A stretch of DNA of 64,000 nucleotides from Candidatus Limnocylindrales bacterium (GCA_038245845.1 JBBRRZ010000019.1:158-64157), one strand, 5' to 3'. Positions 9,468-55,467 are shown, counted from the stretch's first letter. The notes: a model not told the origin generated them from the letters alone. Numbers and translations: made by a program.

Positions 9468-10109
9468 TCAGGAGAGGTCCGGCGCCCAGCCTGTCCCCAA
9501 CGCGGCCGAGAAGGCCCGATCGGGCGGTTGACGAGCGTCGAGGCCCGCGGCATAGGCGCCAATGAGGTTCGCGAACGTGCCATCGCGATCATCGGAGGGC
9601 GCGGCCATGATCGTCGCCCCGGCCGGGATCGCGTCGGGCGGGTCGCTCCCCTCGCCCACGATCACCACCAACTGCGCGCCCGCGAATGCAGCGGCGTCGA
9701 CGGCGACGGCGAGCGCCGCGTCGAGAGCGTCGACCGTCACGATGAGCACGTTGAAGGCGGTCAGGTATCGGAGCCCGAGGTCGACGTCCAGCGTTTCGAG
9801 GAGCGGCCCACCCGCAACCGGGCTCCGCGCAGGCGCCTCGTCGTCGTGCGGAGCAGGGTCATCCGGCTCGGGCCCCGGATCCATGAGGACGGTCGGCCGC
9901 GCGGGGTCGCGGAGGAGCGCCACGTGCCCGATGCCGGCCCTGCCAAGCGCGATCACGAGCTCGTCACCCGCGCGATCATCGCCGGCCCGTCCCACGAGCT
10001 CGACGGCGGCGCCGGCTGCAGCCGCTGCCAACGCGATCCCGCATGCCAGGCCTGCCGGTCCGGACGGTTCGGCCGCCTGCCAGGCGGGATTCCCCACGAC
10101 GACGATCAT
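9468..10109 (-). CDS. Hypothetical protein, weakly PfkB/ribokinase-like (degenerate)
   Basis: ATG at 10109 gives MIVVVGNPAW. Ala/Gly-rich Rossmann-like segments. No clear catalytic motifs. Confidence 0.35.
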   Translation of the reverse strand: MIVVVGNPAWQAAEPSGPAGLACGIALAAAAAGAAVELVGRAGDDRAGDELVIALGRAGIGHVALLRDPARPTVLMDPGPEPDDPAPHDDEAPARSPVAGGPLLETLDVDLGLRYLTAFNVLIVTVDALDAALAVAVDAAAFAGAQLVVIVGEGSDPPDAIPAGATIMAAPSDDRDGTFANLIGAYAAGLDARQPPDRAFSAALGTGWAPDLS

Positions 10110-10246
10110 GACGCGGAGCGTACCCGGCCCGGCGCGACCCGGCAGGCTGCGCACGTCATGCGACGGCGCCGCCGATCGACGCGGCCGGTGATTACCCCCG
10201 CGACGATCGAGAGCAGGAGGATCGGCAGCGTGCCCGGCGCCGACAC
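10106..10246 (-). CDS. Possible 46-aa membrane peptide (single TM, basic stretch, CAAC)
   Basis: GTG at 10246. Product VSAPGTLPILLLSIVAGVITGRVDRRRRRMTCAACRV.... High third-position GC. Stop overlaps the next gene's ATG (ATGA). Confidence 0.3.
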   Translation of the reverse strand: MSAPGTLPILLLSIVAGVITGRVDRRRRRMTCAACRVAPGRVRSAS

Positions 10247-10313
10247 GAGCCCGAGCGCCGGCAGCCAGGTCGCGATGCGCCCCGGCCGGGGTGCTGGCGC
10301 GACGTCGCTGCGC

Positions 10314-11864
10314 TCAGGCGTCGCGCGTGCCCCCGTCGGCGTGTGCTCCGTCCGGACCGTCGCTGGTGCCCGGATCGGCCGGCGCATCGCCGTCCGGCAG
10401 GTCCGGCTCCTCGGCGCCCTCGGTCGGGCCGCCCTCGACCGCGTCGACGGGACCCGCCTCAACGCCCGGGGCCCCGGCGGCGGCCGACGACACCGGCTCC
10501 GGGTCCACGATCAGCTCGATCGGTCCCAGCTGCTCGGCCTCGAGCGCCGCGCCGAAGTGCTCGTGGTCGCCCACGAGGATGATCGCCACTGCATCGGGGT
10601 GGATGTGATCGTGGGCGACGCGCTGGACGTCGACGGCGGTCACCGCCTCGATCGCCCCGCGGTAGCGGGCCAGCTCGTCGTCGGGGAGGTCGTGGACGAA
10701 CAGGCCGGCCAGCGACCCTGCCACGGGACCCGGCGTCTCGAACCTTAGCGGGAAGACGCCGATCAGAAAGTCGCGGGCAGCACGCAGCTCGGCGTCCGTG
10801 ACCGGGTCGTGGCGGATCCGGTCAAGCTCCTTGAGGAACTCCTGGAGGGCCGGGATGGTGGCCTCGGTGTTGACGGCGGCCCGGGCAGTGAACGGTCCGC
10901 GGGCACGTCGCAGGTCGAAGCCGGCGCTCGCGCCGTAGGTATAGCCCTTGTCCTCGCGGAGGTTCATGTTCAGCCGGGAGTTGAACAGCCCGCCGAGGAT
11001 CGCGCTCATCACCGACACCGCGTGGAAGTCACGGGTGCTCCGGGCGAGGCCCGGGTGCCCGATGCGGATCTCCGTCTGGACGGCGCCCGGCCGATGGACG
11101 ACTCGCACGAATCGACCGTCGATCGCGGAGGTGTCGTCGATCGTGCCCGGGACGGTCCCCTCCCCCGCCCAATCGCCGAACAGGGCCTCCGCGTCACGGA
11201 TGACCTCGTCCGGGTCGATGTCTCCGGCGACGACCAGCGCCGCGCGCGACGGTGTGTACGCGCGGGCATGGACAGCTCGAAGCTCGCCAGGCGTGAGCGT
11301 GGCCACCGTCTCGGCCGTGCCGCCCGCCGGGCGGTGATACGGCGAGGAGGTCCGATAGATGGACGAGACGTACGCCTCGTCGGCACGCCGGCGCGGATCG
11401 GCCTTCGCCTGCAGCAGGTCGGTCAGGCGCTCGTCACGCAGGCGGTCCACCTCGGCCTCGGGAAACGAGGGGCGGCGGACGACCTCGGCCAGGAGCTCGA
11501 GCGCGGCGGCGAAGCGGCTGGCGGGCACATCCAGGCCCGCGGACGTCGCGTCCCAACCGGCCTCGGCGTGGAGCGATGCGCCAAGGCGCTCGCCAGCCTC
11601 GGTCAACGCGATCGCGTCACGGACCTCGGTTCCCTCGGTCAGGCCGCGCGCTGCGAGAACGGTCGCGCCGCCCACCGCATCGGGCTCGTCGGCGGCCCCG
11701 GAACGGAGCGCGAGCGTCGCCGCAATCAGCGCCCGGCCAGGCATCGGCGTGACCATGATCCGCAGGCCGTTCGGGAGAGTGGTCCGGACCGTGGCCGGGA
11801 ACTCGTAGCGGCGGGGCTCGCCCGGGACCGGACGCTCCGCGATCAGGTCGCCGGCGTGGCTCAT
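10314..11864 (-). CDS. M16-family peptidase, non-catalytic (beta-like) subunit with acidic C-terminal tail
   Basis: M16 fold-like sequence, but the HxxEH position reads GGATVLAARGLTEG. ATG at 11864 overlaps the upstream stop (ATGA). Asp/Glu/Pro/Gly-rich tail. Confidence 0.8.
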   Translation of the reverse strand: MSHAGDLIAERPVPGEPRRYEFPATVRTTLPNGLRIMVTPMPGRALIAATLALRSGAADEPDAVGGATVLAARGLTEGTEVRDAIALTEAGERLGASLHAEAGWDATSAGLDVPASRFAAALELLAEVVRRPSFPEAEVDRLRDERLTDLLQAKADPRRRADEAYVSSIYRTSSPYHRPAGGTAETVATLTPGELRAVHARAYTPSRAALVVAGDIDPDEVIRDAEALFGDWAGEGTVPGTIDDTSAIDGRFVRVVHRPGAVQTEIRIGHPGLARSTRDFHAVSVMSAILGGLFNSRLNMNLREDKGYTYGASAGFDLRRARGPFTARAAVNTEATIPALQEFLKELDRIRHDPVTDAELRAARDFLIGVFPLRFETPGPVAGSLAGLFVHDLPDDELARYRGAIEAVTAVDVQRVAHDHIHPDAVAIILVGDHEHFGAALEAEQLGPIELIVDPEPVSSAAAGAPGVEAGPVDAVEGGPTEGAEEPDLPDGDAPADPGTSDGPDGAHADGGTRDA

Positions 11865-13959: not shown

Positions 13960-14481
13960 TCAGGCGGGTCGCGCGACCCGGCGGCCCATCTGGCTCGCCG
14001 CGAGCCTCACGAGGACGATCGCGACGAGGGCACCGGCGAGGGCCGAGGCCGCGAGCGTCGCGGGCTCCATCGGGAGCGGGATCGACAGCCAAGTGCCGTC
14101 GTAGTCGGGCCCTTCCAGCGCGACCGGGCGGGTGAGCAGGTAGAGCGCCCCACCCGTGAGCGCGCCGACCGCCGCGGCGAGGATCGATGGCAGGAGAAGC
14201 CCGGGCCGGTGTGGGGCGACCACGAGGACCGACGCGGCGACCAGGGCGACGAGAAGCTGCCCCCAGTTGCCCTGCGTGGGCAGGAGGCCCGTGGCGGCCG
14301 CGCAGCGAACCGCCGTGACGTCCAGCGGCCCGAGGCACGCGGCGACCTGCCCACCGCCGAACAGGAGGAGCATCGCCGTGCCGATCCCGAGGACGGCCAC
14401 CGCCGCCATCCGCCTGATCGTGGTGGTTCCTGACATGACGCGATCCTGAACGGTGCCAAGACGCTCGCCAATGCGGGTCAT
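13960..14481 (-). CDS. Hypothetical polytopic membrane protein
   Basis: Four hydrophobic segments. Start ambiguous: ATG at 14481 or 14436. Divergent from the ArsR gene across the palindromic operator. Confidence 0.4.
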   Translation of the reverse strand: MTRIGERLGTVQDRVMSGTTTIRRMAAVAVLGIGTAMLLLFGGGQVAACLGPLDVTAVRCAAATGLLPTQGNWGQLLVALVAASVLVVAPHRPGLLLPSILAAAVGALTGGALYLLTRPVALEGPDYDGTWLSIPLPMEPATLAASALAGALVAIVLVRLAASQMGRRVARPA

Positions 14482-14527
14482 CCCGCAGTTCCGACGCGGC
14501 GGCCCCGGGGTTGACACTGCGTGGTCC

Positions 14528-14549
14528 GTGTTAGATGATCATCTAACAC
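14528..14549. promoter_or_regulatory. Perfect 22-bp palindrome GTGTTAGATGATCATCTAACAC (candidate ArsR operator 1)
   Basis: Self-complementarity checked base by base. Lies 22 nt upstream of the ArsR ATG at 14572, in the divergent promoter region. Confidence 0.7.
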
Positions 14550-14571
14550 AAGGAAGACCGGCAGGACATTG

Positions 14572-15648
14572 ATGAGCCACTCCACCCGCAGCACCGCCTC
14601 GAATGCCCCCAGCGGGCGCGCCATGCTCCGCGATGTCGGCGCCGGCGCGAGCCTGCCGGCGGCGTTCGACGTGCGCACCGCGTTCGACTTCGCGGTGAGC
14701 CTGGCCCACGAGGTCGGCGAGCACGAGGAGCTCCCGGCCGAGGACCGTCGCTGGCTGGAGCGGTCGCGCGCGGCGCTCCCCGAGCGCGTTCGCGGCGCAA
14801 TCGATGACGAGATGTGGACCTTCGGTGCCGGGCTTGCGGTCGACCGCCCGGATGTCACCGATGCCGCGGGCTTCGTGGACCTGCTCGCGCACACGACCGG
14901 CGCGGAGTTCACGGGAGCTGTCCTCGCCGACAGCCTGCGCGACCCGGCACGGCGCGCGGAGGTTACCGCCGCCCTCGACGGGGACGGGGCCGCCATCGCG
15001 ACGCTGCTCGCGGCCTGGCCGGACCACAAGCAGGGCTGGTTGCGCCGGCTGCTCGTCGACGCCGATTCGCTCATCGGCGAGGTCAGCGACCTCATGGCTG
15101 CCTGGCTGCCGCTCTACCAGGAGATCGAGCCGCGCGTGCGCGCGATCATCGAGCGCGACGTCCGCCTGCGCGCGGGCGACATCGCGAGCCTCTCCCCCGC
15201 CGAGCTGATCGAGCGCACGACGAACGGCATCCGCTGGCTGTCGGAGCCTGGGGTACGCCGCGTGGTGCTCGCGCCATCGTTCGTGGTCCGTCCCTACAAC
15301 TTCACCTTCGCGGGCGGCGACTGGCGGCTGTTCATCTACCCGGTGTCCGATGGTGCGCTCGAGCCGCTCGACCCGCTGGCGCCGCCACCCGGCGTCCTCC
15401 GCCTGCACCGCGCGCTCGGCGACGACTCGCGGCTGCGCATCCTGCGCCTGCTCAAGGATCGCGACTGGTACCTGACCGAGATCGCCGAGCGCCTGGAGCT
15501 GTCCAAACCGACGATCAAGCACCACCTCGCGCAGCTCCGGGCCGCCGGCCTCGTGACGCTGACCGAGGAAGGTGGTCTCTCCTACTACAGCCTCCGGCGT
15601 GACCGGCTCGACGACGCCTCGTCAGAGCTGATCCGCTTCCTCTCCTAG
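14572..15648 (+). CDS. ArsR-family transcriptional regulator with ~250-aa uncharacterised N-terminal domain
   Basis: C-terminus LHRALGDDSRLRILRLLKDRDWYLTEIAERLELSKPTIKHHLAQLRAAGLV is an ArsR/SmtB winged HTH. ATG at 14572. Confidence 0.8.
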   Translation: MSHSTRSTASNAPSGRAMLRDVGAGASLPAAFDVRTAFDFAVSLAHEVGEHEELPAEDRRWLERSRAALPERVRGAIDDEMWTFGAGLAVDRPDVTDAAGFVDLLAHTTGAEFTGAVLADSLRDPARRAEVTAALDGDGAAIATLLAAWPDHKQGWLRRLLVDADSLIGEVSDLMAAWLPLYQEIEPRVRAIIERDVRLRAGDIASLSPAELIERTTNGIRWLSEPGVRRVVLAPSFVVRPYNFTFAGGDWRLFIYPVSDGALEPLDPLAPPPGVLRLHRALGDDSRLRILRLLKDRDWYLTEIAERLELSKPTIKHHLAQLRAAGLVTLTEEGGLSYYSLRRDRLDDASSELIRFLS

Positions 15649-15690
15649 GCTCCCAATGTTCGCCCGTCCCGCGTCCCGCGCGACCCGCGA

Positions 15691-15713
15691 GTTAGATGAA
15701 GGACTAACACAAG
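15691..15713. promoter_or_regulatory. Second operator-like site GTTAGATGAAGGACTAACACAAG
   Basis: Shares GTTAG-N8-CTAAC plus the flanking ACAAG with site 1. Lies between the ArsR stop (15648) and the small ORF at 15773. Confidence 0.6.
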
Positions 15714-15772
15714 TGAGATCGCAGACAACCGGCTTCCCCACCCCGCACCGCTCCAACGAGGGAGATCACCCC

Positions 15773-15970
15773 ATGTACGACACGCTTCGCCAGAACGACA
15801 TCGACCACCTGGTCCAGGACCGGATCGGCGACCTGTACGCGACCGCGCGGGAGCTGCGGCCTGCACACCGCGACATCGACATCCATACGGGGCTCGTCAC
15901 GCGCACCCGCTGGTCGATCGGCCGGCGGCTCGTGTCCCTCGGGAATACCGTCGCGGGCCAGCACGCCTGA
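15773..15970 (+). CDS. Small hypothetical protein (65 aa)
   Basis: ATG preceded by GAGGGAG. Product MYDTLRQNDIDHLVQDRIGDLYATAREL.... No family recognised. Confidence 0.4.
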   Translation: MYDTLRQNDIDHLVQDRIGDLYATARELRPAHRDIDIHTGLVTRTRWSIGRRLVSLGNTVAGQHA

Positions 15971-15981
15971 CCCGGCATCGC

Positions 15982-16422
15982 CTAGAGCGGGAGCAGCACC
16001 GCGACGATCGTGATCGGCAGCGAGATGAGGAACGCGTCGCGGATCATCCGCGCCACTGCCGCCATGTCCGCCCGATGCGCGGCCTCGTCCTCGACGCTCC
16101 GCCGGGTCGAGTCGGCATCGCCGAAGTTCGTGATCCGCGCGAAGGCGAACCCCGCGCAGAAGTGTCGGCGTGCCTGGAGCCACGAGAACGTCCCGCCCAT
16201 CAGCGGCAGGATAAGGACCAGGCGGCTCAGCGCCGGGGCGTGCAGCGCGACAAGCGCCGCGAACACGATCGCAGCCGTCACGAAGCCCACGATCCCGATG
16301 GTCCGTCGCTTGCGGATCTCCCACGGCCCGATGTTGCACACGCCCGGCACGTAGCCGTCGCCAACAGGTGCCGGTGCGATGGTGATCGGGGTCAGGGGCG
16401 TCGAGGCGGAGAGACCGGACAT
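15982..16422 (-). CDS. Hypothetical membrane protein (146 aa)
   Basis: ATG at 16422 preceded by GGAGG. Several hydrophobic segments. Divergent from CopC. Confidence 0.55.
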   Translation of the reverse strand: MSGLSASTPLTPITIAPAPVGDGYVPGVCNIGPWEIRKRRTIGIVGFVTAAIVFAALVALHAPALSRLVLILPLMGGTFSWLQARRHFCAGFAFARITNFGDADSTRRSVEDEAAHRADMAAVARMIRDAFLISLPITIVAVLLPL

Positions 16423-16537
16423 GCAACCTCCAGGGACCCGCGCGGAGGGTGGCGGGCGTGGACCCGAGGGTCCTTCCCTATCTTCGCCCGGATCGGCTTC
16501 GTGGATGCTGCCGTCGGCAGCGAACCCAGCGCGCGGG

Positions 16538-16543
16538 TAGACT
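16538..16543 (+). promoter_or_regulatory. Candidate -10 hexamer TAGACT (GGGTAGACTC), 8 nt upstream of the CopC GTG
   Basis: Same motif and spacing as at 6047. Confidence 0.35.
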
Positions 16544-16551
16544 CCCCAGCC

Positions 16552-17223
16552 GTGGACACGATCGCCAACCGCCCGACTCCGGCCCGTGGCCCCCGCGTTT
16601 CCGCGTACCGCGTCCTCGCCGTCATCGGCGCGCTGGCGATCGGGCTTCTGACGGCGGTCCCCGCCCTCGGCCACGCCGAGCTCACCACGTCCGACCCTCC
16701 CGACAAGGCCGTCCTCGACACCCCGCCGACGACAATCACGCTCACCTTCAGCGAGGGCCTCGACGCGGGCAAGAGCTCCTTCAAGGTCATGGGGCCGGCC
16801 GGCGCCATCGGTACGGGCACGGCGGCGGCCGATGGCGCGGTCACGATGTCGCTGGACGGGCTGACGCTCGCACCGGGTGCCTACTCGATCGAGTGGACCT
16901 CCGCAGCCGCGGATGGCCACATCGACCGCGGCACGCTCAGCTTCTCCGTCACTGAACCCCAGGCGGCTTCGCCCGCGCCGACGGCGGCGCCCACGTCGAG
17001 CGCGGCGGCATCGGCGAGCGCGGCGGCATCGGCGAGCGCGGCGGCATCGGCGAGCGCGGCGGCATCGGCGATCGCGGCCCCGTCCGTCGCCGCCACCCCT
17101 GCGCCGAGCGGCGACGGTGCACCCGCGGCGTCCGGCGCTGACGTCCTGCTGCCGATCATCGCTGCCCTCGCGCTCGTAGCGATCGTCGGCGCATTCGTCC
17201 TTCGCCGCACCCGCACCGTCTGA
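16552..17223 (+). CDS. copC: CopC-domain copper-binding protein with Ala/Ser linker and C-terminal TM anchor
   Basis: Signal peptide ends ALG|HAELTTSDP, so the mature N-terminal residue is His, as in CopC. CopC-like beta-sandwich sequence (YSIEWTSAAADGH). C-terminal helix LLPIIAALALVAIVGAFVL. Confidence 0.8.
   Translation: MDTIANRPTPARGPRVSAYRVLAVIGALAIGLLTAVPALGHAELTTSDPPDKAVLDTPPTTITLTFSEGLDAGKSSFKVMGPAGAIGTGTAAADGAVTMSLDGLTLAPGAYSIEWTSAAADGHIDRGTLSFSVTEPQAASPAPTAAPTSSAAASASAAASASAAASASAAASAIAAPSVAATPAPSGDGAPAASGADVLLPIIAALALVAIVGAFVLRRTRTV
16999..17070 (+). repeat. Perfect 4 x 18-bp in-frame tandem repeat AGCGCGGCGGCATCGGCG, encoding (SAAASA)4
   Basis: Read directly from the sequence. 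Lies inside the CopC linker. Confidence 0.9.
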
Positions 17224-31035: not shown

Positions 31036-31761
31036 CTACCTGCTCGGGCTGGCAACCGGCGTGGCGCGGGGGTCGGGCGAGACCGGCAGCTTCGGGCGCA
31101 CGTCGTGGCACAGCACGCACGTCGAGTCGGCGCGCAGCGCGTGGTCGATCGGCAGCGCACCCACGTCGGTGGACTGGTGGCATGCCCGGCACGTGCGGTC
31201 CTGCGGGTCCGGGTGCGGCTTGATCGGCGGCGGCGACGGGTTCGGCTTGTGGCACAGCCAACACTCGTCCTCGTTGCGGCCGACCATGCTCGTCGGCAGG
31301 TGGGCGATCTTGCCGTGGCAGTCCAGGCACGCCTCGTTGAGGTCGGCGTGGGCCTGGGTGATCGTCGGCCCGTCGGGCGCCGTCTTGTGGCAGTTGAGGC
31401 ACTCCGACTGGGCGATGCCGTCGTGGCCGGGCGCGTTGCGGCCCAGCTTCTCGCCGGTGTGGCAGGTCAGACACGCGGTCCAGCCCTTGACGGGGTGGCC
31501 CAGGGCCGGGATCGGCTTGATCCCGGCCGCGCCGCCTTCCGTGTGGCACAGGACGCAGCTGTCCGAGGTGGGGATATGCGCGAGGCCCATCTCCATCAAC
31601 TCGATGGACGCGGCCGGCGACCCCGACGGATCAGCCCCGGGACCCCCGACCGACGGGAGGATGCGCAACCAGTCGGCGACCATCGTGCCGGCGAGCATCG
31701 CGACGACGATGAGGTTGAGCACGATGAGGAGCCGCAGCGTCCGGCTGACCCTGCGCTTCAT
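31036..31761 (-). CDS. Membrane-anchored heptaheme c-type cytochrome
   Basis: Seven CxxCH: CVLCH, CLTCH, CLNCH, CLDCH, CWLCH, CRACH, CVLCH. Each is preceded by a His 6-13 residues upstream. N-terminal TM LRLLIVLNLIVVAMLAGTMV. ATG at 31761 overlaps the protease stop (ATGA). Confidence 0.85.
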   Translation of the reverse strand: MKRRVSRTLRLLIVLNLIVVAMLAGTMVADWLRILPSVGGPGADPSGSPAASIELMEMGLAHIPTSDSCVLCHTEGGAAGIKPIPALGHPVKGWTACLTCHTGEKLGRNAPGHDGIAQSECLNCHKTAPDGPTITQAHADLNEACLDCHGKIAHLPTSMVGRNEDECWLCHKPNPSPPPIKPHPDPQDRTCRACHQSTDVGALPIDHALRADSTCVLCHDVRPKLPVSPDPRATPVASPSR

Positions 31762-32306
31762 GCGGTCGCCGCTGTCAGCGTGGGAGTGGCGCTCCCGTGG
31801 TGTGCAGAAACGGTGGTGCCGCGTGCCTCGTCCGCGAGCGCCCATGCCGTACGCCGGACGGTGGCGATCGCGAGCGGGAGCGCCGCCTCGACGCGTGGCG
31901 AGAGCCCGAGTTCGAAGGTGATCTCCCCTGCCTCGACGCCGACGAGGGCGACGGGCCGGGTCATGCTGGCCAGGAGCCGCGCGACGGCCAGGAGCTCGGC
32001 GATCCCGCCCGCGGCCGACCCGGACCGCCCGGGGGCCGCGCCGATGGCGTCGTCCCTCAACACGCGCACGGTGCCCGGCTCGCCCCCCGTGTCGAGCGCG
32101 TCCACGACGAGGACCGCGCATGCGCCGTTGATCTCGTCGAGCAGGTCCATGCCCAGCGTGCCGCCGTCGACGAGGCGGGTCTGCGCCGGCAGCAGCGACG
32201 CATCGTCGTTCGCCAGCCAGCCGAGCGCCTCCACGATCCTCGGGCCGATGCCATCGTCGCGCAGCAGCACATTGCCCACACCGATCACGACGAGGGGGCC
32301 GCTCAT
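31758..32306 (-). CDS. [NiFe]-hydrogenase maturation endopeptidase (HyaD/HybD family)
   Basis: LVVIGVGNVLLRDDGIGPRIVEAL...VLVVDALD. ATG at 32306 overlaps the cytochrome b stop (ATGA). Confidence 0.85.
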   Translation of the reverse strand: MSGPLVVIGVGNVLLRDDGIGPRIVEALGWLANDDASLLPAQTRLVDGGTLGMDLLDEINGACAVLVVDALDTGGEPGTVRVLRDDAIGAAPGRSGSAAGGIAELLAVARLLASMTRPVALVGVEAGEITFELGLSPRVEAALPLAIATVRRTAWALADEARGTTVSAHHGSATPTLTAATA

Positions 32307-33160
32307 GCCTCGGTCCGATCGAGGAGCTCGACGCCGCCATCGCGCGACTCGACGATCTCCTCGCGGGTCGGGAACTTGAACCCCGACACGATGCTGGAGA
32401 TCAGGCCGTTGTGCTCGAGATGGTCCACGAGGATGCAGCTGTAGATGTGGAACAGCGCGATCGCGAGGATCCCCCACATCGCGAGGTGGTGGACGAGGCG
32501 GAGCAGCTGCGGGCCGAGGAGCTCGCGCAGCCATGCGAACAGCGTCGCCCCGGGCTCGGCGCCCGTCAGCCCGTCGAGCGCGAAGCCCGTCACGACCTCG
32601 ACGAGCAACAGGGCGAACAGCACCACGTAGGCGGTCGCGGCCAGCTGGTTGTGGCCGAGGACCTTGGGGATCTCCTTGCGGATGAAGCCATAGAACCCTG
32701 CTTGCCGGAACAGCTCGGTCGCCTGGAACATCGACGTGGGGATGAATGCCGACCAGCGTGCGAACCGGTTGCCCGCCAGGAGCCAGTACGTCCGCACGAG
32801 CCCGGACAGCAGGAACGCCAGCGCCGTCACGATGTGGATGAAGCGGACGACGCCAAGCAGGTTGGCGCCATTCGGGAGCAGGAACGGGTCCGCGATGTAC
32901 AGGCCGGTGGCGCTGAGCACGACGATGCAACCGGCGGTCACCCAGTGGGTCGCCCGGACCGGGACCTGCCAGATGTACAGCCGGACACGCTCGTCGGGGC
33001 GGTCGATCTCGTGTGCGTGGCCGACCACTGCATCGTGCATTGCGGCGGGGACGGCGAATGCGGCCGGCGTGGCCTCCACGGGCACCGCCGACGGCTCGGG
33101 GATGGCCGACGGCTCCGGCACCGGGGCGACGGCCGGCGGGGCGTCGTGGACGGCGGTCAT
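32303..33160 (-). CDS. Ni/Fe-hydrogenase b-type cytochrome subunit (HyaC-like)
   Basis: VRATHWVTAGCIVVLSATGLYI, RFIHIVTALAF, HHLAMWGILAIALFHIY. Four TM segments with conserved His. ATG at 33160 overlaps the large-subunit stop (ATGA). Confidence 0.8.
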   Translation of the reverse strand: MTAVHDAPPAVAPVPEPSAIPEPSAVPVEATPAAFAVPAAMHDAVVGHAHEIDRPDERVRLYIWQVPVRATHWVTAGCIVVLSATGLYIADPFLLPNGANLLGVVRFIHIVTALAFLLSGLVRTYWLLAGNRFARWSAFIPTSMFQATELFRQAGFYGFIRKEIPKVLGHNQLAATAYVVLFALLLVEVVTGFALDGLTGAEPGATLFAWLRELLGPQLLRLVHHLAMWGILAIALFHIYSCILVDHLEHNGLISSIVSGFKFPTREEIVESRDGGVELLDRTEA

Positions 33161-34929
33161 CGACTCGCCTCCGTGGCGTGGATGCGGATGTCGAACGGGC
33201 CGGCGCCGCGTGGGTCGAACGCGTGGACGGCACATGCAGGGCAGGGGTTGAAGCTGTGGACCACACGCAGCACCTCGAGCGGTCGCGTGGGATCCGCGAC
33301 CGGCGTCCGCAGGAGCGCGTCCTCGATCGGGCCCCGCCTGCCGAACGTGTCGCGCGGCGACAGGTTCCACGTGGACCCGTCCACGACCTGGTAGTGGTCG
33401 ATGGCCTTGTCGCGGATGCTCACCCAGTGCGCAACCGCGCCGCGCGGCCCCTCCCCGGTCGACCAGCCATCGGCCTCGTCGGGCCACGATCCCGGGTCCC
33501 AGGTGGACAGATCCACGACCGCCACGTCGCCCGTGGCGAGGTTCGTCCGCAGCTCCCAGACCCAGCTGTCGGCGCGCTTCGCGATCGCGGCTGCCTCGAC
33601 GGCCCGGGCCATGAGCCTGCCGAGCACGCTGGGCATCGCCTCCGCGCCCAGGCCGGTCGCCGTGAGGAGCGCCCCGAGCGGAGATGTGATCGCGTCACGG
33701 CCCTGCGCGTACGCCACGAGGACGCGCGCGAGTGGCCCGGTCTCCATCGGCTCACCGTCGTAGCGCGGTGCCTTGACCCAGCTGTAGCGACCCTCGGTGT
33801 CGAGCGCGCCCAGTGGCAGCACGGCATCGAACGCCGCGTCCGTGATGCCGTCCACCGGCGCGCGCAGGGCTGCTGGACCGCGATCCTCCGCGTACCACGC
33901 GTGGGCGACGGACTCCCCTACGCCGTCCTGGTCAGCGGCCTTGATGCTCGCGAGGTTCCCGTTGACGAGCCGTCCCGCCGGCAGGTAGAGCGGCGGCTCG
34001 CGCTCGTCGGTCTCGGCCAGATCGCCCCACGAGAGGTAGTTGCCCGACCCGCCGCCGATCTGCGTCCAGTCCGGGTACGCAGCGACGAGCAGCCGCATGT
34101 CCGGCAGGAACACGCGATTGACGAAGGCGCCCGCGCGCCCGATGAGGTCGTCGAGCATCGTCAGGCCGGCGTCGCTCAGCGGATGCGGGGCGTTGCGATC
34201 CGGCACGTCCGGGTGACCGCGCTGCTGACTCGGAGCGGGGCCACCCCACGGCGGCGCGAGCGCCATCCCGCCGACGAGGTATGTCTGGGGGTGGGGGTCC
34301 TTGCCACCCAGGAGCGCATGGATGCGCATCACGTCGCGCTGCCAGTCGAGGGCCTCGAGGGCATGGGCGAGGAGGAGGAGGCTCTGCTCGGGCGATAGGG
34401 CGAACCCCGGGTGTCCGGACCACGGGCTGCTGAACGGCCCGGGCTGGTCCGACTCCAGGACAGGGGCAAGCCGCGCCTGGACCGCGCGCAGGCTGTCGGC
34501 GGTCGAGGAGGGCCAGTCGGCCATCGAGCGGCCGAGCGTCGCGGTCGCCACCGGATCGGCGCGCAGAGAGGCCGAGGCGTCCACCCAGTCGGGCAGCTGT
34601 GCCTGGTAGAAGGTGAGCACGTGGTCGCGCACCAGCTGCGTGGACGCGAGGAGGTTGCGCAGAATCCGGGCGTTCGTCGGAATGCGGACGTTGAGCGCGC
34701 GTTCGACGGCACGCACGGAGGCGAGCGCATGGACACTGCTGCAGGTGCCGCAGATGCGGGACGCCAGGAGCCAGACCTCGCGCGGGTCGCGGCCGTGGAT
34801 GACGTTCTCGAGGCCGCGGAACATCGTCCCGGCGCTCCATGCGTCGCTGACCGCCCCGGCCGTCACGTCGACGTCGACGCGCAGCTGGCCGTTGAGGCGC
34901 GTGACGGGATCGATGCTGAGGCGGGTCAT
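33157..34929 (-). CDS. [NiFe]-hydrogenase large subunit (divergent)
   Basis: N-terminal IDPVTRLNGQL, RICGTCSSVH (RxCGxCxxxH), C-terminal HSFNPCPACAVH followed by a 21-aa extension. ATG at 34929. Confidence 0.9.
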   Translation of the reverse strand: MTRLSIDPVTRLNGQLRVDVDVTAGAVSDAWSAGTMFRGLENVIHGRDPREVWLLASRICGTCSSVHALASVRAVERALNVRIPTNARILRNLLASTQLVRDHVLTFYQAQLPDWVDASASLRADPVATATLGRSMADWPSSTADSLRAVQARLAPVLESDQPGPFSSPWSGHPGFALSPEQSLLLLAHALEALDWQRDVMRIHALLGGKDPHPQTYLVGGMALAPPWGGPAPSQQRGHPDVPDRNAPHPLSDAGLTMLDDLIGRAGAFVNRVFLPDMRLLVAAYPDWTQIGGGSGNYLSWGDLAETDEREPPLYLPAGRLVNGNLASIKAADQDGVGESVAHAWYAEDRGPAALRAPVDGITDAAFDAVLPLGALDTEGRYSWVKAPRYDGEPMETGPLARVLVAYAQGRDAITSPLGALLTATGLGAEAMPSVLGRLMARAVEAAAIAKRADSWVWELRTNLATGDVAVVDLSTWDPGSWPDEADGWSTGEGPRGAVAHWVSIRDKAIDHYQVVDGSTWNLSPRDTFGRRGPIEDALLRTPVADPTRPLEVLRVVHSFNPCPACAVHAFDPRGAGPFDIRIHATEASR

Positions 34930-34930
34930 G

Positions 34931-36163
34931 TCAGCCCTCCCCGCTGGTCTCTCGCGTGTCTGCGTCATCGGGGATCGCCAGCGGTATACCAACGGCGAGC
35001 GCCACATCCCCGGCCGCGGTGTCGCCCTCGGCCGCGGCGACACTCCCGGCCGGCGTGCCGTCCGCGGCCGCGGCGAGCTGGACCGCGCGGCGTGCCTTCC
35101 GCGCCCGGTACTTCGAGCGGCTGGCCATGCCCGTCCCGTGGGCGACCGCCACCCCGGCGATCCCACCGACCGCCAGCAGTCCGACCTGGTCCACGGTCAA
35201 CGTTGGCATGAACGGGACGGGCGACCCGAGCCGTCGATAGGCGGGCGCATAGCCATCCCAGAAGTTCGGCATGAAGCAGCCGATGCAGCCATGACCGGCG
35301 CGGATGTTCCAGCTCACACCGCCGCCGTAGCGCGCGGTCGGGCAGTTGCCCATCGTCTCGGGACCCTTGCAGCCGAGCTTGTACAGGCACCAGCCCTTCT
35401 GTGCGCCCTCGTCGCCCCAGCTGAGCGCGAACTCGCCGAACTCGAAGTGGGGCCGTCGCTCGCACTTGTTGTGGATCAGCTCGCCGTACCCGAACAGCGG
35501 CCGGCCGGCGAGGTCCGTCGGCGGGAGCTCCTTGAAGGTGGCGTAGTGGACGATCAGCGCGGCGAGGTTCTCGGCGTTGGCCGGACAGCCCGGCAGGGCG
35601 ATGACCGGACTGTTGCCGCTCACCGATCGGATGCCCTCGGCCTCGGTCGTGCCGCCATTCGCGCCCGGCGCCCCGCCATCGAAGGCACAGGACCCGAGGG
35701 CGATCGTGGCAATGGCGCCGTCACACACCTCCCGGGCGACGTCGGCGAATGGCCGACCCCCGATGAGGCACATCGCGCCGCCTGCCGCCTTGGGCACGGC
35801 ACCCTCGATGACCGCGAGGTAGCCGTTCGGGTAGCGCTCCATCGCCGAGGTGCGCACGAGCTCGGCGTCCGCACCGGCGGCGCCCATCAGGCTCTCGTCG
35901 TAGTCCACGGCGAGGACCTGGAGGAGGAGGTTGGCAGTCGTGGGATTGCCGACCCGCAGCAGCGCCTCGGAGTTGCCGCCGCACGCCTGGCCGCGGAGCC
36001 AGATCACCGGGATTCTGGGGGCTGCCTCGACGGCAGCGGCGATTCGTGGTCCGTAGGCCAGGGGCATCGCGAGCGCCGCGGCCATGGCTGACGAGAACTG
36101 GAGGAAGGTTCGGCGGGACATCCCGCGCGCCACGAGCGCGGCGTAGAGCCCGTCCTCACCCAT
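34931..36163 (-). CDS. [NiFe]-hydrogenase small subunit, Tat-exported, C-terminal TM anchor
   Basis: Twin-arginine signal SRRTFLQF. FeS motifs GSCAFDGG, LPGCPAN, IHNKCERRPHF, GWCLYKLGCKGP, GHGCIGC. Hydrophobic C-terminus VGLLAVGGIAGVAVA. Confidence 0.9.
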   Translation of the reverse strand: MGEDGLYAALVARGMSRRTFLQFSSAMAAALAMPLAYGPRIAAAVEAAPRIPVIWLRGQACGGNSEALLRVGNPTTANLLLQVLAVDYDESLMGAAGADAELVRTSAMERYPNGYLAVIEGAVPKAAGGAMCLIGGRPFADVAREVCDGAIATIALGSCAFDGGAPGANGGTTEAEGIRSVSGNSPVIALPGCPANAENLAALIVHYATFKELPPTDLAGRPLFGYGELIHNKCERRPHFEFGEFALSWGDEGAQKGWCLYKLGCKGPETMGNCPTARYGGGVSWNIRAGHGCIGCFMPNFWDGYAPAYRRLGSPVPFMPTLTVDQVGLLAVGGIAGVAVAHGTGMASRSKYRARKARRAVQLAAAADGTPAGSVAAAEGDTAAGDVALAVGIPLAIPDDADTRETSGEG

Positions 36164-36451
36164 CGTTGCACCAAGCGCGGCGTGTCACGGTGGGCGGGTG
36201 CCGGAAGGCCCCACATCGGCCGTGACGAGATCAGGGGGACGCTGGTACCGATGATGGCCGACGCGTGCCCGGCTGGCCACGGGCCACTCGTCGCCGCCAT
36301 GGGTGCCCCCGGGCACCGTCCGGGGGTCCGCTTGGGACTCCGCGCGCCTGCCCCGGGTCACCGTCAGGCAGGACCCATGGCCCCCGGGGTCGTGCCCGAG
36401 GTCGGGGCTGACGCTCGCCGGCAGTCGATCTCGCCATCCGCGCAGACGGGC

Positions 36452-36514
36452 GCGGACCGGCGGCGGACCTGCGCGCGGACCGGCGCGGACCGGCTCGCGG
36501 ACCGCCGGCGGACC
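36452..36514. repeat. Six copies of GCGGACC phased at 10-12 bp
   Basis: Copies start at 36452, 36463, 36475, 36485, 36497 and 36508. Located about 290-350 bp upstream of the hydrogenase small-subunit start. Confidence 0.8.
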
Positions 36515-36668
36515 TGCGCATCCGCTCCCCGGGCGGTCGCAATCCGACGCGTCCGGGCTACACCTGCGCATCTGCTCTCCCGGTGAGCGCCAATGGGCCC
36601 CGAGCGCCGCATACGCCCCCCCGATGCGCGCAACGCAGTTGATCGCCAGATAGCGACCACCCGGAGAG

Positions 36669-36757
36669 CATTCGCAGCGGCCCGCCAGCCATCGCCGCGA
36701 CATTCGCGGTGCCGCCGCCCGCCAGGCATTCGCGGTGCCTCGCCAGCATTCGCGGTG
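36669..36757. repeat. Four copies of CATTCGC(G/A)G(T/C)G, the last two within 20-bp tandem units GCCAG(G)CATTCGCGGTG
   Basis: Copies start at 36669, 36701, 36727 and 36747. Lies between the hydrogenase operon and tRNA-Lys. Confidence 0.75.
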
Positions 36758-36831
36758 TCCGGAACGACCGGCCGCAGGACAGACGAACGCCCCTCCAGGC
36801 GGACCCGAGGGGCGTTTTCGCGTGCAGATCT

Positions 36832-36906
36832 TGGTGAGCCGGGAGGGATTCGAACCCTCAACCTAATGATTAAGAGTCATTTGCTCTGCCGTTGAGCTAC
36901 CGGCCC
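36832..36906 (-). tRNA. tRNA-Lys (anticodon CUU), CCA encoded
   Basis: Hand-folded: acceptor GGGCCGG/CCGGCTC (one G-U), D arm GCTC/GAGC, anticodon stem AATGA/TCATT with loop CTCTTAA, T arm GAGGG-TTCGAAT-CCCTC, discriminator A, CCA. 75 nt. Confidence 0.9.
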
Positions 36907-44724: not shown

Positions 44725-45585
44725 TCAGCGCGGGTAGGCGTGGAACCCGCGGCCCGTCTTCTGGCCCAGGTGCCCGGCCGCCACGAGCTCGACCAGCACG
44801 GCCGGCGGGACGAACTGCGGCTGGCCGAAGCCATCCTCGAGCACGCTCATGATGCCGAGGCACACGTCGAGGCCGATGAAGTCCGCGAGCGCCAAGGGAC
44901 CCATCGGGTGATTCAGGCCGACCCGTGCACCCGTGTCGATGTCCTCGGCCGTGCCCAGGCCCTCCTCGTATGCCCGCATCGCCTCCGCGAGGAAAGGCAT
45001 CAGGATGCGATTGACGATGAACCCCGGCCGGTCCGCGGACACGATGACCTGCTTGCCGAGCTCGGCTGCGAGCGTCCGAATCGAGGCCTCCGTCTCGTCG
45101 CTCGTCGCGCTGCCGCGGATCAGCTCGATGAGCGGCATCACCGGCACGGGGCTGAAGAAATGCATCCCGACGAAGCGCGCCCGCCGACCCTCCCCGACCG
45201 CGTCCGCGAGCGTGTCGATCGCGATGGACGACGTGTTCGAGGCGAGGAGCGCGCCGGCGGGCGCGATGGCGTCGAGCGACCCCCACAGCCGCGTCTTGAC
45301 ATCGACGTCCTCGAACACGGCCTCGACCACGAGGTCGGCATCGCCGGCCGCAGCGAGCGTGTCGACCGCGACGAGTCTCGCGAGGATGGCGGCGCGCTCG
45401 TCCGCCGTGAGCTTGCCCTTCGCGATCGCGCGCTCGAGGTTGCCGGCGATCCGGTCCCACCCCGCCTGCGCTCGCGCAAGGTCAGGCTCGTAGAGGACCA
45501 CGTGCTTGCCAATGGCCGCGTGGACCTGCGCGATGCCGTGGCCCATCAGCCCGGCACCCGCGACGAAGACTCGTTCGACCGTCAT
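44725..45585 (-). CDS. hbd: 3-hydroxybutyryl-CoA dehydrogenase
   Basis: VFVAGAGLMGHGIAQV Rossmann motif, ASNTSS, HFFSPVPVMPLIE, PGFIVNRIL. ATG at 45585 overlaps the meaB stop (ATGA). Confidence 0.9.
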   Translation of the reverse strand: MTVERVFVAGAGLMGHGIAQVHAAIGKHVVLYEPDLARAQAGWDRIAGNLERAIAKGKLTADERAAILARLVAVDTLAAAGDADLVVEAVFEDVDVKTRLWGSLDAIAPAGALLASNTSSIAIDTLADAVGEGRRARFVGMHFFSPVPVMPLIELIRGSATSDETEASIRTLAAELGKQVIVSADRPGFIVNRILMPFLAEAMRAYEEGLGTAEDIDTGARVGLNHPMGPLALADFIGLDVCLGIMSVLEDGFGQPQFVPPAVLVELVAAGHLGQKTGRGFHAYPR

Positions 45586-46580
45586 CGGGCCTCCTCCGTG
45601 CGCAGGGCGGCCAGCAGCCGGTCCGCGGCCATGTACGGGTCCGTCTCGTGCGCGGCGACGGCGTCGATCGCGGCCGCGGTCTGGGCCTCGAGGGGCGGCG
45701 CGGCGAGCCGGTCCCACAGGCGCTCCACGAGAACCGCACGCACCTGGGCGGTTGCGCGGGCGCGACGCGCGGCGCGGGTCGTCCCCTGGGCGCCCGTCGC
45801 CCGATGCCGGTCGAGCGCCGCGAGGAGCTCCGGGATGCCCTGCCCGGTCATCGCCGTCGTGACCAGAACCTCGGGTCGCTTCGGGGTCGGGCGGTCCGGG
45901 TCTGCGTCTCCGCGGGCCACGCTGGGTACGAGCATCGCGCGCAGCTGCGCGGCTGTGCGCTGGGCGCCCGGGCGATCGCCCTTGTTCACGACCACGAGAT
46001 CGGCGACCTCCAGCAGGCCGGCCTTGATCGCCTGGACCTCGTCGCCCATCTCGGGCGCCTCGAGCACGACCGTCGTGTCTGCGGCGGCCGCGACCTCGAC
46101 CTCGCTCTGGCCCGTGCCCACCGTCTCGAGCAGCACGATGTCGAAGCCCGAGGCGGCGAGGACCGTCGCCGCGGCGGTCGAGGTCGCCGCGAGCCCGCCC
46201 GCGTGCCCACGCGACGCCATCGAGCGGATGAACACGGCGTCGTCGGACGCGTACGACTGCATGCGCACCCGGTCTCCGAGCAGCGCGCCCCCGGTGATCG
46301 GCGAGGACGGGTCCACGGCCACGACCGCGACCGTCCGGCCGGCGGCCCGCAGCTCCGCGATGAGCGCCGCCACCAGCGTAGATTTGCCGGCACCGGGCGG
46401 CCCGGTGATGCCCACCAGGTGCGCGGCCCCGGCCAGCGGGTAGAGGCGCCGCAGGGCCTGCTCCGCGACGGGGGTGTGGTTCTCGACGGCGGTCAGCAGC
46501 CGCGCGAGCGCCCGGCGATCGCCCGCACGGGCGGCATCGGCAAGGGTGGCGGCTCGGTCCGCAGCAGTCTCGTCGGCCAT
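45582..46580 (-). CDS. meaB: MeaB/ArgK-type G-protein chaperone of B12-dependent acyl-CoA mutases
   Basis: GITGPPGAGKSTL P-loop, AVDPSSPITGGALLGDRVRM, VVNKGD. Confidence 0.9.
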   Translation of the reverse strand: MADETAADRAATLADAARAGDRRALARLLTAVENHTPVAEQALRRLYPLAGAAHLVGITGPPGAGKSTLVAALIAELRAAGRTVAVVAVDPSSPITGGALLGDRVRMQSYASDDAVFIRSMASRGHAGGLAATSTAAATVLAASGFDIVLLETVGTGQSEVEVAAAADTTVVLEAPEMGDEVQAIKAGLLEVADLVVVNKGDRPGAQRTAAQLRAMLVPSVARGDADPDRPTPKRPEVLVTTAMTGQGIPELLAALDRHRATGAQGTTRAARRARATAQVRAVLVERLWDRLAAPPLEAQTAAAIDAVAAHETDPYMAADRLLAALRTEEAR

Positions 46581-46590
46581 CGGGCGGCCG

Positions 46591-46995
46591 TCAGTCGCGC
46601 GGCGTCGCGTTGGCGCGGATGAAGTCGGCGACCTCGCGGATCGTCGTGCCGGGCCCGAAGACCTCCGAGACCCCCGCGGCCTTGAGCTGCGGGATGTCGT
46701 CGTCGGGGATGATGCCGCCGACCGTCACCAGGACGTTGTCCAGGCCACGCTCGCGCAGCTGGGCGCAGACACGCGGCACGAGCGTCATGTGGGCGCCGGA
46801 CAGGATCGAGAGGCCGACGACGTCCACGTCCTCCTGGAGCGCGGCGGTCACGATCATCTCGGGGGTCTGGCGGAGGCCCGTGTAGACGACCTCGAAGCCC
46901 TCGTCGCGCAGGCCGCGCGCGAGGACCTTCGCCCCGCGGTCGTGGCCGTCGAGGCCGGGCTTCGCGATCAGCACCTTGAGCGGTCGATCGGTCAT
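46591..46995 (-). CDS. Acyl-CoA mutase small subunit (cobalamin-binding domain)
   Basis: [17 protein letters not shown] (DxHxxG), [17 protein letters not shown]. 134 aa. Confidence 0.9.
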
Positions 46996-47016
46996 GGCGC
47001 GATTGTACGGGCACGG

Positions 47017-54759: not shown

Positions 54760-55467
54760 GTGAGAGACGACCTCCCGTTCAAGTTGCCGCCGGTCGATCC
54801 TGTCGCGGCCGAGGGCGTTTCCGCGTCCTCGCTGTCGCCTGAGCTCCTCGCGGGCCTGCTCGCCGACGGCGACGACGAGCTTGCCGCGTGGACGCTGCGC
54901 CACGCCCTCGCGGAGGCAACTCGAGTCGAAGTCTTCGACGGCCTCCTGCGCGACGCCATGACGCTCGTCGGGGAGCGCTGGCAGAGCGGCCAGTGGACCA
55001 TCGCCGAAGAGCACCTCGCGTCGCGAACCCTCCTCCGTGCCCTGGAGCGAATCCGCCCCGCCCTTGGTCCCGAGCATCGGGTCGGGCCGGTCGCCGTGCT
55101 CGCAGGCATCGCGGGTGAGCAGCACATGATCGGGCTGGTGTGCCTGGAGCAGGTGCTCGCCGAGGCGGGTTGGACTGTCCAGAACCTCGGGGCAGACCTG
55201 CCGGCGGCGGACCTCGGTGCGTTCGTCGCGCGCAACGAGGTGGCGTTCGTGGGGCTGTCCGCGATCGATCCCGGGCGGGTCACCACGATCGCCGATGCCG
55301 TCCGGGCCGTCCGGGCCGCGGCTGATGGTCGTTCCGTCCCGATCCTCGTGGGCGGCCAGGTCGCCGTTCACCCCGGCCTGCTGGCCGCCACCGGCGCTGA
55401 CGGCACCGCACGCTCCACCGCGGACGCGCTGGCCTTCGCTGAGGCTCACCGCCCGCGACCTGCCTAG
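54760..55467 (+). CDS. Stand-alone CarH-like cobalamin-binding module (helix bundle plus B12-binding Rossmann), no DNA-binding domain
   Basis: [12 protein letters not shown] fits Wx9EH. EQHMIGL fits ExHxxG. Also GLSAI and ILVGG. The first ~55 aa show no HTH. GTG start. Confidence 0.7.

Follow-up and report, generated by a model that had tools for sequence, protein, structure and literature searches.

A 64,000-nucleotide stretch of DNA from Candidatus Limnocylindrales bacterium (GCA_038245845.1 JBBRRZ010000019.1:158-64157; the whole analyzed stretch is called the window below) carries on its minus strand, at positions 31036-36163, five coupled genes whose boundaries were fixed from the sequence. 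They encode the small (HydS) and large (HydL) subunits of a [NiFe]-hydrogenase, a cytochrome b (CytB), a maturation endopeptidase and, at the 3′ end, a membrane-anchored cytochrome c with seven heme motifs (MHC7). Domains and motifs identify the enzyme as a membrane-bound group 1 [NiFe] uptake hydrogenase of the HyaABCD/HydABC design, exported by the twin-arginine translocation (Tat) system, and the comparison of relatives identifies MHC7 as a true conserved member of the operon. On balance, we favor the reading that MHC7 is an outward-facing redox subunit which takes H2-derived electrons at CytB or at the distal iron-sulfur (FeS) cluster of HydS and would thereby give the enzyme a second exit besides menaquinone. 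All parts come from known families and a close functional analogue exists; the combination is, in our judgment, apparently undescribed. The source organism is a metagenome-assembled genome (MAG) of Limnocylindria (Ellin6529), Chloroflexota. The features on which the argument is built are the following:

34931..36163, minus strand: HydS, [NiFe]-hydrogenase small subunit, 410 aa (PF10518, PF01058, PF14720, TIGR00391)
35972..35983, minus strand: codons for C61-G-G-N64 of HydS, located by alignment to 'ECTCCTES' of Hyd-1
33157..34929, minus strand: HydL, [NiFe]-hydrogenase large subunit, 590 aa (PF00374 NiFeSe_Hases, E 3e-166)
32303..33160, minus strand: CytB, HyaC/HydC-type diheme cytochrome b, 285 aa (PF01292, TIGR02125)
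31758..32306, minus strand: HyaD/HybD-type maturation endopeptidase, 182 aa (PF01750 HycI; TIGR00072, 115.6 bits)
31036..31761, minus strand: MHC7, membrane-anchored heptaheme cytochrome c, 241 aa (seven CxxCH, PF14522, PF09699)
31660..31758, minus strand: MHC7 residues 2-34, N-terminal signal-anchor helix (AlphaFold2 predicted local distance difference test, pLDDT, 91-98)
31099..31596, minus strand: MHC7 residues 56-221, extracytoplasmic heme domain with seven H-x6-12-CxxCH modules (conservation)

The hydrogenase and its heptaheme cytochrome

The ATG of HydL lies 1 nt past the HydS stop and is preceded by a Shine-Dalgarno-like run (GGGGAGGG), and the HydL/CytB, CytB/endopeptidase and endopeptidase/MHC7 junctions are all ATGA overlaps. 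Gene order, coordinates and junctions, re-derived here from the sequence, agreed in every point with those given in an earlier note on this DNA. The same note had called the cytochrome a stoichiometric operon member, a step that overlapping codons do not allow.

HydS consists of a Tat signal (SRRTFLQ), three FeS-cluster regions, a C-terminal transmembrane (TM) helix with an invariant His (73/73 relatives) and a variable cytoplasmic tail. The Tat signal scored 17.6 bits against TIGR01409 (cut-off 16.7) and 21.2 bits against PF10518 (TAT_signal), slightly under the cut-off of 22.7. The matches to Oxidored_q6 (PF01058) and NiFe_hyd_SSU_C (PF14720) were above the curated cut-offs, TIGR00391 gave 350 bits, and the protein aligned with the small subunits of Escherichia coli Hyd-1 and of the Cupriavidus necator membrane-bound hydrogenase (MBH) at E 2e-78. 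HydL has both Cys pairs, RICGTC (L1) and NPCPACAVH (L2), which are kept throughout the clade, and a 21-residue C-terminal extension past the His. CytB, with four TM helices and a variable Pro/Ala-rich N-terminal extension, scored 86.6 bits against PF01292 (Ni_hydr_CYTB) and 131 bits against TIGR02125 (cut-off 121.5) and aligned with E. coli HyaC (4GD3) at E 3.5e-21; its His72, 109, 170, 224/225 and 238 were invariant among about 115 relatives.

As for the group to which the enzyme belongs, the best PDB matches of HydL were Hyd-5/Hyd-1 (452-447 bits), the Allochromatium vinosum enzyme (447), the Desulfovibrio enzyme (416) and Hyd-2 (405). Since its scores against the solved enzymes of groups 1d, 1e, 1b and 1c are similar (392-452 bits), HydL seems to belong to none of these four. 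The group 1h structure 5AA5 was matched by HydL in part, at 104 bits, and the match at the level of the small subunit was weak too (E 1e-15). Group 1h identity was ruled out by this weak match together with the Tat signal, the cytochrome b and the 1-nt distance between HydS and HydL, and group 1l by gene order, the 1l operon having five interposed HylTM genes and the Rieske protein HylE.

MHC7 matched PF14522 (Cytochrome_C7, 34.8 bits) and PF09699 (Paired_CXXCH_1, 28.2 bits), both above the cut-off, as well as PF14537. The Cys residues of its seven CxxCH motifs are at 69/72, 97/100, 121/124, 145/148, 167/170, 191/194 and 215/218, and the successive motifs are preceded by a His at a distance of 6, 7, 7, 6, 12, 7 and 7 residues (H62, H89, H113, H138, H154, H183 and H207). 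All 14 histidines were 100% invariant in 67 distinct homologues, which is consistent with seven bis-His hemes, and exactly seven CxxCH motifs were present in 68/73 gene copies of the cytochrome-bearing clade, the remainder being truncated or frameshifted. Because positive charges (K2, R3, R4, R7 and R10, inside) sit N-terminal to the helix, MHC7 is predicted to be held by a signal anchor with its heme domain outside. The anchor contains an invariant polar residue, Asn16, and no His. The heme domain is flanked by a variable Pro/Ser/Ala-rich linker and tail and is the best conserved part of the protein, with a mean column identity of 0.81, as compared with 0.63 in the anchor helix and 0.44 in the linker next to it. 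Thus, the motif count, the modeled helix and the invariant histidines bear out the 241-aa protein with an N-terminal TM anchor and seven H-x-CxxCH modules that had been noticed earlier.

The MHC7 frame shows the signature of coding DNA in its third-position G+C (GC3), and more than 480 family members were found at E<=1e-3; MHC7 is therefore not a chance open reading frame (ORF). AlphaFold2 models were made of the monomer, without hemes or partners: an alignment of 18 sequences led to an unusable model (pLDDT 46.8) and one of 118 sequences to a pLDDT of 75. A sequence search of the PDB gave MtrC as the sole, marginal match (E 0.004), driven by the heme motifs. Two established families were considered and rejected. 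Membership in class III (c3) was ruled out because PF02085 scored 20.4 bits, under its cut-off of 22.9, and because MHC7 has seven hemes and a TM anchor, as opposed to the soluble tetraheme fold. A tetraheme quinol dehydrogenase of the NapC/NirT/NrfH type was ruled out by the seven hemes and by a score of 22 bits against TIGR03153 (NrfH), for which the cut-off is 134.

Linkage of MHC7 to the hydrogenase genes

Relatives of the operon were surveyed by short conserved peptide patterns, a procedure by which divergent members may be missed. The MHC7 seed led to 73 genome loci, all of them MAGs from soils, aquifer sediment and lakes, with no culture among them; the exact and near matches were named 'Candidatus Limnocylindrales bacterium' or 'Chloroflexota bacterium'. 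The genes HydS-HydL-CytB, in some loci without the peptidase, lay directly 5′ of MHC7 in every one of these loci with enough upstream DNA, with the exception of L064 and L074. The latter is frameshift-damaged and has fewer than seven CxxCH motifs. The former, from a lake MAG (positions 9853-10765), consists of a HydS Tat-leader fragment ending in a stop and then an intact MHC7, lacks the genes for the hydrogenase, the cytochrome b and the peptidase, and is either a deletion remnant or an assembly artefact.

The opposite approach, in which 52 metagenome contigs were collected with CytB as the seed, found MHC7 on every contig whose CytB was at least 59% identical and whose 3′ side was long enough to hold it. 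Six contigs with a CytB about 55% identical (L115-L120) carry the S-L-CytB-peptidase operon, which ends there, without MHC7; in L115 the next gene is a convergent member of the nitrilase family (CN_hydrolase). The search for this sister clade returned more than 8000 proteins at E<=1e-50, and the names among its best 120 clusters (75-100% identical) were Limnocylindrales, Chloroflexi and Dormibacteraeota. Hence, from both seeds, the cytochrome proved to be conserved with hydrogenase genes in relatives, in agreement with the earlier view of it as part of the operon.

In a neighbor-joining tree of HydL, a quick distance tree without bootstraps rooted on L131 (a 6-Cys group 1d locus from the same scan), the MHC7-bearing operons form one clade and the MHC7-less operons its sister. 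On this rough tree, MHC7 appears to have been gained once and then retained. Within the clade, the identity of HydL goes down to about 50% and that of MHC7 ranges from 50 to 82%, and the ATGA/GTGA start-stop overlap at the MHC7 gene is retained in 65/74 loci. The flanking genes vary among relatives and the five-gene unit is constant; cytB was never detached from hydSL (125 loci). That MHC7 was gained once and then kept, even as HydL drifted down to about 50% identity, is a strong argument for a function tied to the hydrogenase.

In a nested subclade, cytB and MHC7 are direct neighbors, with no peptidase gene in between. The peptidase-less loci are these:

Genome loci: L056, L057, L061, L067, L068
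Further loci: L089, L091-L097, L100, L101, L104, L109, L110, L112, L113, L123

In the survey as a whole, at least some of the HydL proteins end at or just past the C-terminal His.

Distant relatives of MHC7

An exhaustive profile search covered 1.84 billion representatives, among which the MHC7 family makes up one 50% cluster. Among the more distant relatives are octaheme proteins of about 250-310 aa (34-47% identity), with the same N-terminal anchor and linker, seven heme modules in register and an eighth module at the C-terminus. Other relatives are membrane proteins of the NrfD family that carry an MHC7-like domain as a C-terminal fusion. The octaheme proteins are encoded in a conserved module (L077, L078, L080 and L081) made up of a small multiheme cytochrome c, a 4Fe-4S NrfC-like protein, NrfD and the octaheme cytochrome c, with several NrfD::octaheme fusions and no hydrogenase structural genes. 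A regulator of the LuxR/GerE type is found just 5′ of the module in L077, L078 and L081, with a second one 3′ in L078, and HypA and a ParA/Mrp-like gene are located 5′ of it in L077 and L078. The module looks like an uncharacterized quinone:cytochrome c module. Seen against these proteins, MHC7 is a C-terminally shortened member of a family that is regularly paired with membrane subunits of the quinone-interacting kind.

Looser relatives are fused to a PF01292 cytochrome b. Their c domain aligns with MHC7 at 31% identity and with many gaps, and their b domain is no near relative of CytB, so these fusions were given less weight as 'Rosetta-stone' evidence. An 841-aa 'fusion' (P0122) was set aside because its ORF is frameshifted or mis-called. 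Giant proteins of 1800-3274 aa (P0124, P0141, P0147, P0155, P0167 and P0187) matched the heptaheme profile in up to 24 stretches and appear to be built from repeats of the MHC7 heme module.

The proximal-cluster position of HydS

Asn64 of HydS stands at the site of Cys20 (E. coli Hyd-1 numbering), a canonical ligand of the proximal cluster. The motif C-x-G-N/D/E/S was found in all of the approximately 70 relatives (L002-L074, L085-L128), including the sister clade without MHC7. HydS keeps the other three proximal-cluster cysteines (Cys17, 115 and 149 in the same numbering) and so departs from the four-Cys ligation of a proximal [4Fe-4S] cluster that is usual for group 1. The supernumerary Cys19 and Cys120 of the O2-tolerant group 1d are replaced by Gly at both sites, while the six-Cys motif (CTCC...GC) of the group 1d control locus L131 was correctly recognized by the same comparison.

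The substitution, which marks a clade of Tat-exported enzymes linked to a cytochrome b and separate from groups 1h and 2a, suggests a proximal cluster that is either [3Fe-4S] or O/N-ligated. The proximal cluster of group 1h is bound by three Cys and an Asp, and Huc has an all-[3Fe-4S] relay; both are O2-insensitive uptake enzymes (PMC11023054). A missing canonical Cys in a clade apart from 1h and 2a bears on the evolution of oxygen tolerance and catalytic bias.

Proposed electron path and alternatives

The proposal of two exits follows from the anatomy, which is that of HydABC/HyaABC with an outward seven-heme chain added and has its nearest analogue in CbcBA of Geobacter (see below). H2 would be split at the [NiFe] site of HydL, and the electrons would run through the three FeS clusters of HydS to the outer heme of CytB. 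One exit would then be the classical route, across the membrane via the inner heme b to menaquinone. The other would lead sideways, from the outer heme of CytB or from the distal cluster, into the seven-heme wire of MHC7, held on the outer face of the cytoplasmic membrane by its single N-terminal helix, and from there to an extracytoplasmic acceptor: other c-type cytochromes, a cytochrome c oxidase or reductase, or an extracellular oxidant. CytB and MHC7 would in this way make up a CbcBA-like b/c module bolted onto a hydrogenase. A more far-reaching version, which we put forward tentatively and consider clearly less probable, is that MHC7 hard-wires the hydrogenase to outside acceptors, either by reducing a cytochrome c oxidase or reductase without the involvement of quinone, or by extracellular transfer to minerals or humics.

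The proposal starts from firm ground, namely the gene content, cofactor residues and topology of the operon, the linkage seen in both directions, the single gain and retention of MHC7 and the association of its relatives with quinone subunits. The branched or extended outward path of the earlier note is plausible from anatomy and analogy; that MHC7 touches CytB or HydS, which way the electrons flow and what takes them up are inferred, and this is the first point that weighs against the two-exit path. There are several more. A Foldseek search of the PDB with the MHC7 model, which is of moderate quality (pLDDT 75), gave no match, and the likeness of MHC7 to the PF01292 fusions is modest and partly driven by the heme motifs. 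The MHC7 gene follows the maturation protease, a position where classical operons carry accessory genes. Moreover, MHC7 is dispensable for basic hydrogenase function, because the sister clade works without it, and may have a role of its own, because L064 keeps it intact after the loss of the hydrogenase. Finally, bis-His multiheme cytochromes are usually of low potential, though transfer to a high-potential oxidase chain is possible.

CytB was also compared between the two clades. No loop insertion able to mark a docking site was found in CytB of the MHC7 clade relative to the sister clade. The clade-specific substitutions form a stripe on TM3 (172, 175, 177, 181, 185 and E188, the last being Gln in the sister clade). 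Together with the invariant Asn16, this stripe is a faint hint, compatible with the MHC7 anchor packing on CytB.

Limnocylindria are predicted monoderms, and nearly all of their genomes encode cytochrome c terminal oxidases (bioRxiv 10.1101/2021.08.23.457424), which makes them at least facultative aerobes. In a predicted monoderm, the anchoring of a cytochrome c is what we would expect.

Four alternatives to the two-exit path were weighed, given here from the least to the most improbable. The first is a linear path, in which MHC7 would be the sole physiological acceptor and CytB an anchor and heme-b relay without quinone reduction, making the operon the monoderm counterpart of the Desulfovibrio hydrogenase:c3 pair. 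The expected anchoring just mentioned, the resemblance of the MHC7 modules to the c3/c7 type (PF14522, PF14537) and the retention of MHC7 throughout the clade are in its favor. However, CytB keeps all the histidines expected for two membrane-spanning hemes and the HydS anchor keeps its own, the score against PF02085 is under the cut-off, and the sister clade has a near-identical CytB architecture and no cytochrome c, so that it presumably reduces quinone. Overall, we consider the linear path unlikely.

The analogy with CbcBA and CbcL could also be taken further, to the point where CytB and MHC7 are mainly a CbcBA-like menaquinol:cytochrome c oxidoreductase that empties the quinone pool, works without H2 too and has the hydrogenase as one input of several. 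Relatives of MHC7 in NrfCD-type quinone modules without hydrogenase structural genes, and the persistence of MHC7 in L064 without a hydrogenase, fit this idea. Yet L064 has lost cytB as well, leaving MHC7 there without a b partner, and cytB was always attached to hydSL in the 125 loci. HyaC-type cytochromes b, furthermore, normally reduce quinone and do not oxidize it. A main function as a quinol outlet is, in our estimate, decidedly unlikely.

An altogether different role would be that of an electron reservoir, with the seven hemes feeding electrons back via the FeS relay to reduce O2 at the [NiFe] site and so replacing the missing 6-Cys [4Fe-3S] cluster. To our knowledge, there is no precedent for a cytochrome c as an electron reservoir against O2, and the idea is inferential throughout. 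It gains some appeal from a clade that has neither the supernumerary cysteines nor Cys20, from the at least facultatively aerobic nature of the lineage, with its cytochrome c terminal oxidases (bioRxiv 10.1101/2021.08.23.457424), and from the Asp-ligated proximal cluster of group 1h, which is tied to O2 insensitivity (PMC11023054). The sister clade, on the other hand, has the same small-subunit motif without MHC7, hence the two traits are separable, and we give the reservoir little credence.

That MHC7 is a functionally unrelated passenger, merely co-transcribed with the hydrogenase, as its place at the 3′ end of the operon past the protease and the occurrence of this hydrogenase type without it might suggest, is hardly credible in view of one gain kept over the divergence of HydL to about 50% identity, a start-stop overlap retained in 65/74 loci, the position directly beside cytB where the protease was lost, and flanks that vary around an unvarying five-gene unit.

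In the more far-reaching version, with MHC7 hard-wired to outside acceptors, the operon would represent a class of respiratory hydrogenase that has two exits built in and a residue other than Cys at the proximal-cluster position, in predicted-monoderm and mostly aerobic soil and freshwater Chloroflexota. The clade shows that the cytochrome b design was extended once by a dedicated multiheme wire, which was then kept. The MHC7 clade is widespread (more than 480 protein clusters; soils, aquifer sediments and lakes), and the class is abundant in oligotrophic soils. If the wire carries H2-derived electrons outward, the way in which models couple H2 consumption by these uncultured bacteria to O2, nitrogen oxides, metals or humics would change. 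Such a compact natural hydrogenase-to-cytochrome interface would also be of bioelectrochemical interest.

Heme c maturation and genomic surroundings

A cytochrome c assembly gene of the CcsA/ResC-like type (PF01578, motif WSRYWGWD) was found about 0.6 kb 3′ of MHC7, on the same strand, in nine relatives: L037, L042, L046 (11337-12293), L047, L050, L052, L053, L054 and L055. The ORF between it and MHC7 had no Pfam match. No ccm, ccs or other heme c maturation genes were present in the 64-kb window. On the question of heme c maturation, raised together with the original observation, the relatives thus offer an assembly gene near MHC7, and the window none.

The G+C content is about 72% and flat across the whole window, and housekeeping genes without relation to the operon stand on both sides. 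In two complete chromosomes (3.6 and 4.15 Mb), the operon is located between the same flanks as in the window (aldehyde dehydrogenase ... phosphoribosyltransferase, PMT_2 glycosyltransferase, trypsin-like protease, two-component system and carbamoyl-phosphate synthase). A horizontal-transfer island beside the tRNA-Lys was ruled out by the flat G+C and the synteny of the flanks. The operon therefore belongs to the vertically inherited part of the chromosome. No hyaEF or hyp genes were found in the operon or elsewhere in the 64-kb window, and consensus scans for a sigma-70-like promoter or an intrinsic terminator gave nothing above shuffles. The remaining features of the window are as follows:

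36832-36906, same strand as the operon: tRNA-Lys(CTT), bounding a 670-nt leader 5′ of hydS
36439-36516: short direct repeats in the hydS leader (36164-36906), CGCGGACCGGC-like, three copies
36701-36759: second set of direct repeats in the hydS leader, CATTCGCGGTGCC, three copies
6803-9340, 44725-47000 and 54760-57242: regions, taken jointly, of Tad/Flp pilus assembly genes (TadE/TadG-like) and of two B12-related clusters, unconnected with the operon

The B12-related clusters encode methylmalonyl-CoA mutase, MeaB and B12-binding proteins, beside 3-hydroxyacyl-CoA dehydrogenase and thiolase. In one complete chromosome (L075, positions 14196-16994), an insertion a few genes 3′ of the operon encodes a ferric-reductase-like NOX/FRE protein (domains Ferric_reduct, FAD_binding_8 and NAD_binding_1), an FMN_bind protein and an ApbE flavin transferase, a set reminiscent of flavin-based extracellular electron transfer.

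Comparison with known systems

The textbook design of membrane-bound uptake hydrogenases is fixed: electrons pass through a cytochrome b to quinone, or to a soluble c3. No description of an operon that joins a cytochrome b as well as a multiheme cytochrome c to a hydrogenase was found in the open-access and bioRxiv literature, including hydrogenase surveys of Chloroflexota and Ellin6529, and an earlier one elsewhere is possible; within that literature, the earlier note was right not to recognize a described type.

E. coli Hyd-1 (HyaABCD), Wolinella succinogenes HydABC and the C. necator MBH (HoxKGZ) have the same S-L-b-protease order as the locus and share with it a Tat-exported small subunit with a His-bearing C-terminal TM helix, the HydL extension with a HyaD-type protease, and a four-helix diheme cytochrome b of the PF01292/TIGR02125 type. 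The locus differs from them by its fifth gene for an anchored heptaheme cytochrome c, by the lack of Cys20 and of the extra group 1d cysteines, and by having no hyaEF or hyp in the window.

Desulfovibrio HynAB with its type I tetraheme c3 resembles the locus in that a multiheme bis-His cytochrome c is the extracytoplasmic partner of a group 1 hydrogenase, and MHC7 matches the c3/c7 families weakly. However, c3 is soluble, has four hemes, is usually encoded elsewhere and goes without a cytochrome b, whereas MHC7 has seven hemes and a TM anchor and is encoded in the same operon, together with a cytochrome b. The contrast with soluble c3 that the earlier note had drawn does exist, and it is less striking than implied, since predicted monoderms should anchor their cytochromes c.

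The octaheme proteins (MHC8) are true homologues of MHC7 (34-47% identity), collinear over seven modules and equipped with an N-terminal anchor and a Pro/Ser-rich linker; they differ by their eighth C-terminal module and by a partner that is NrfD-type, sometimes fused, and not PF01292. MmcA, a heptaheme cytochrome c encoded with Rnf of Methanosarcina acetivorans, is described as a conduit for intracellular and extracellular electron transport (PMC10153276). By description, it is alike as a heptaheme cytochrome c tied to respiratory electron transfer and unlike in its partner complex and domain of life.

The closest functional analogue, which the earlier note had overlooked, is found in the cytochrome b plus multiheme c modules CbcBA and CbcL of Geobacter. 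CbcBA consists of a hydrogenase-related diheme cytochrome b and a TM-anchored seven-heme cytochrome c, both required for electron export, and CbcB-CbcA fusions occur in Chloroflexi (bioRxiv 10.1101/2021.04.15.440034). Compared by description and not by sequence, CbcBA of G. sulfurreducens places a diheme cytochrome b beside an outward, anchored seven-heme cytochrome c, as CytB and MHC7 do, and the peptidase-less subclade, with cytB directly beside MHC7, has the cbcBA arrangement itself. CbcL likewise combines a b domain with a multiheme c, in its case a nine-heme domain fused to the b domain. The differences are that CbcBA has no hydrogenase attached and oxidizes menaquinol for extracellular electron transfer, and that CbcA is anchored by a C-terminal helix and MHC7 by an N-terminal one.

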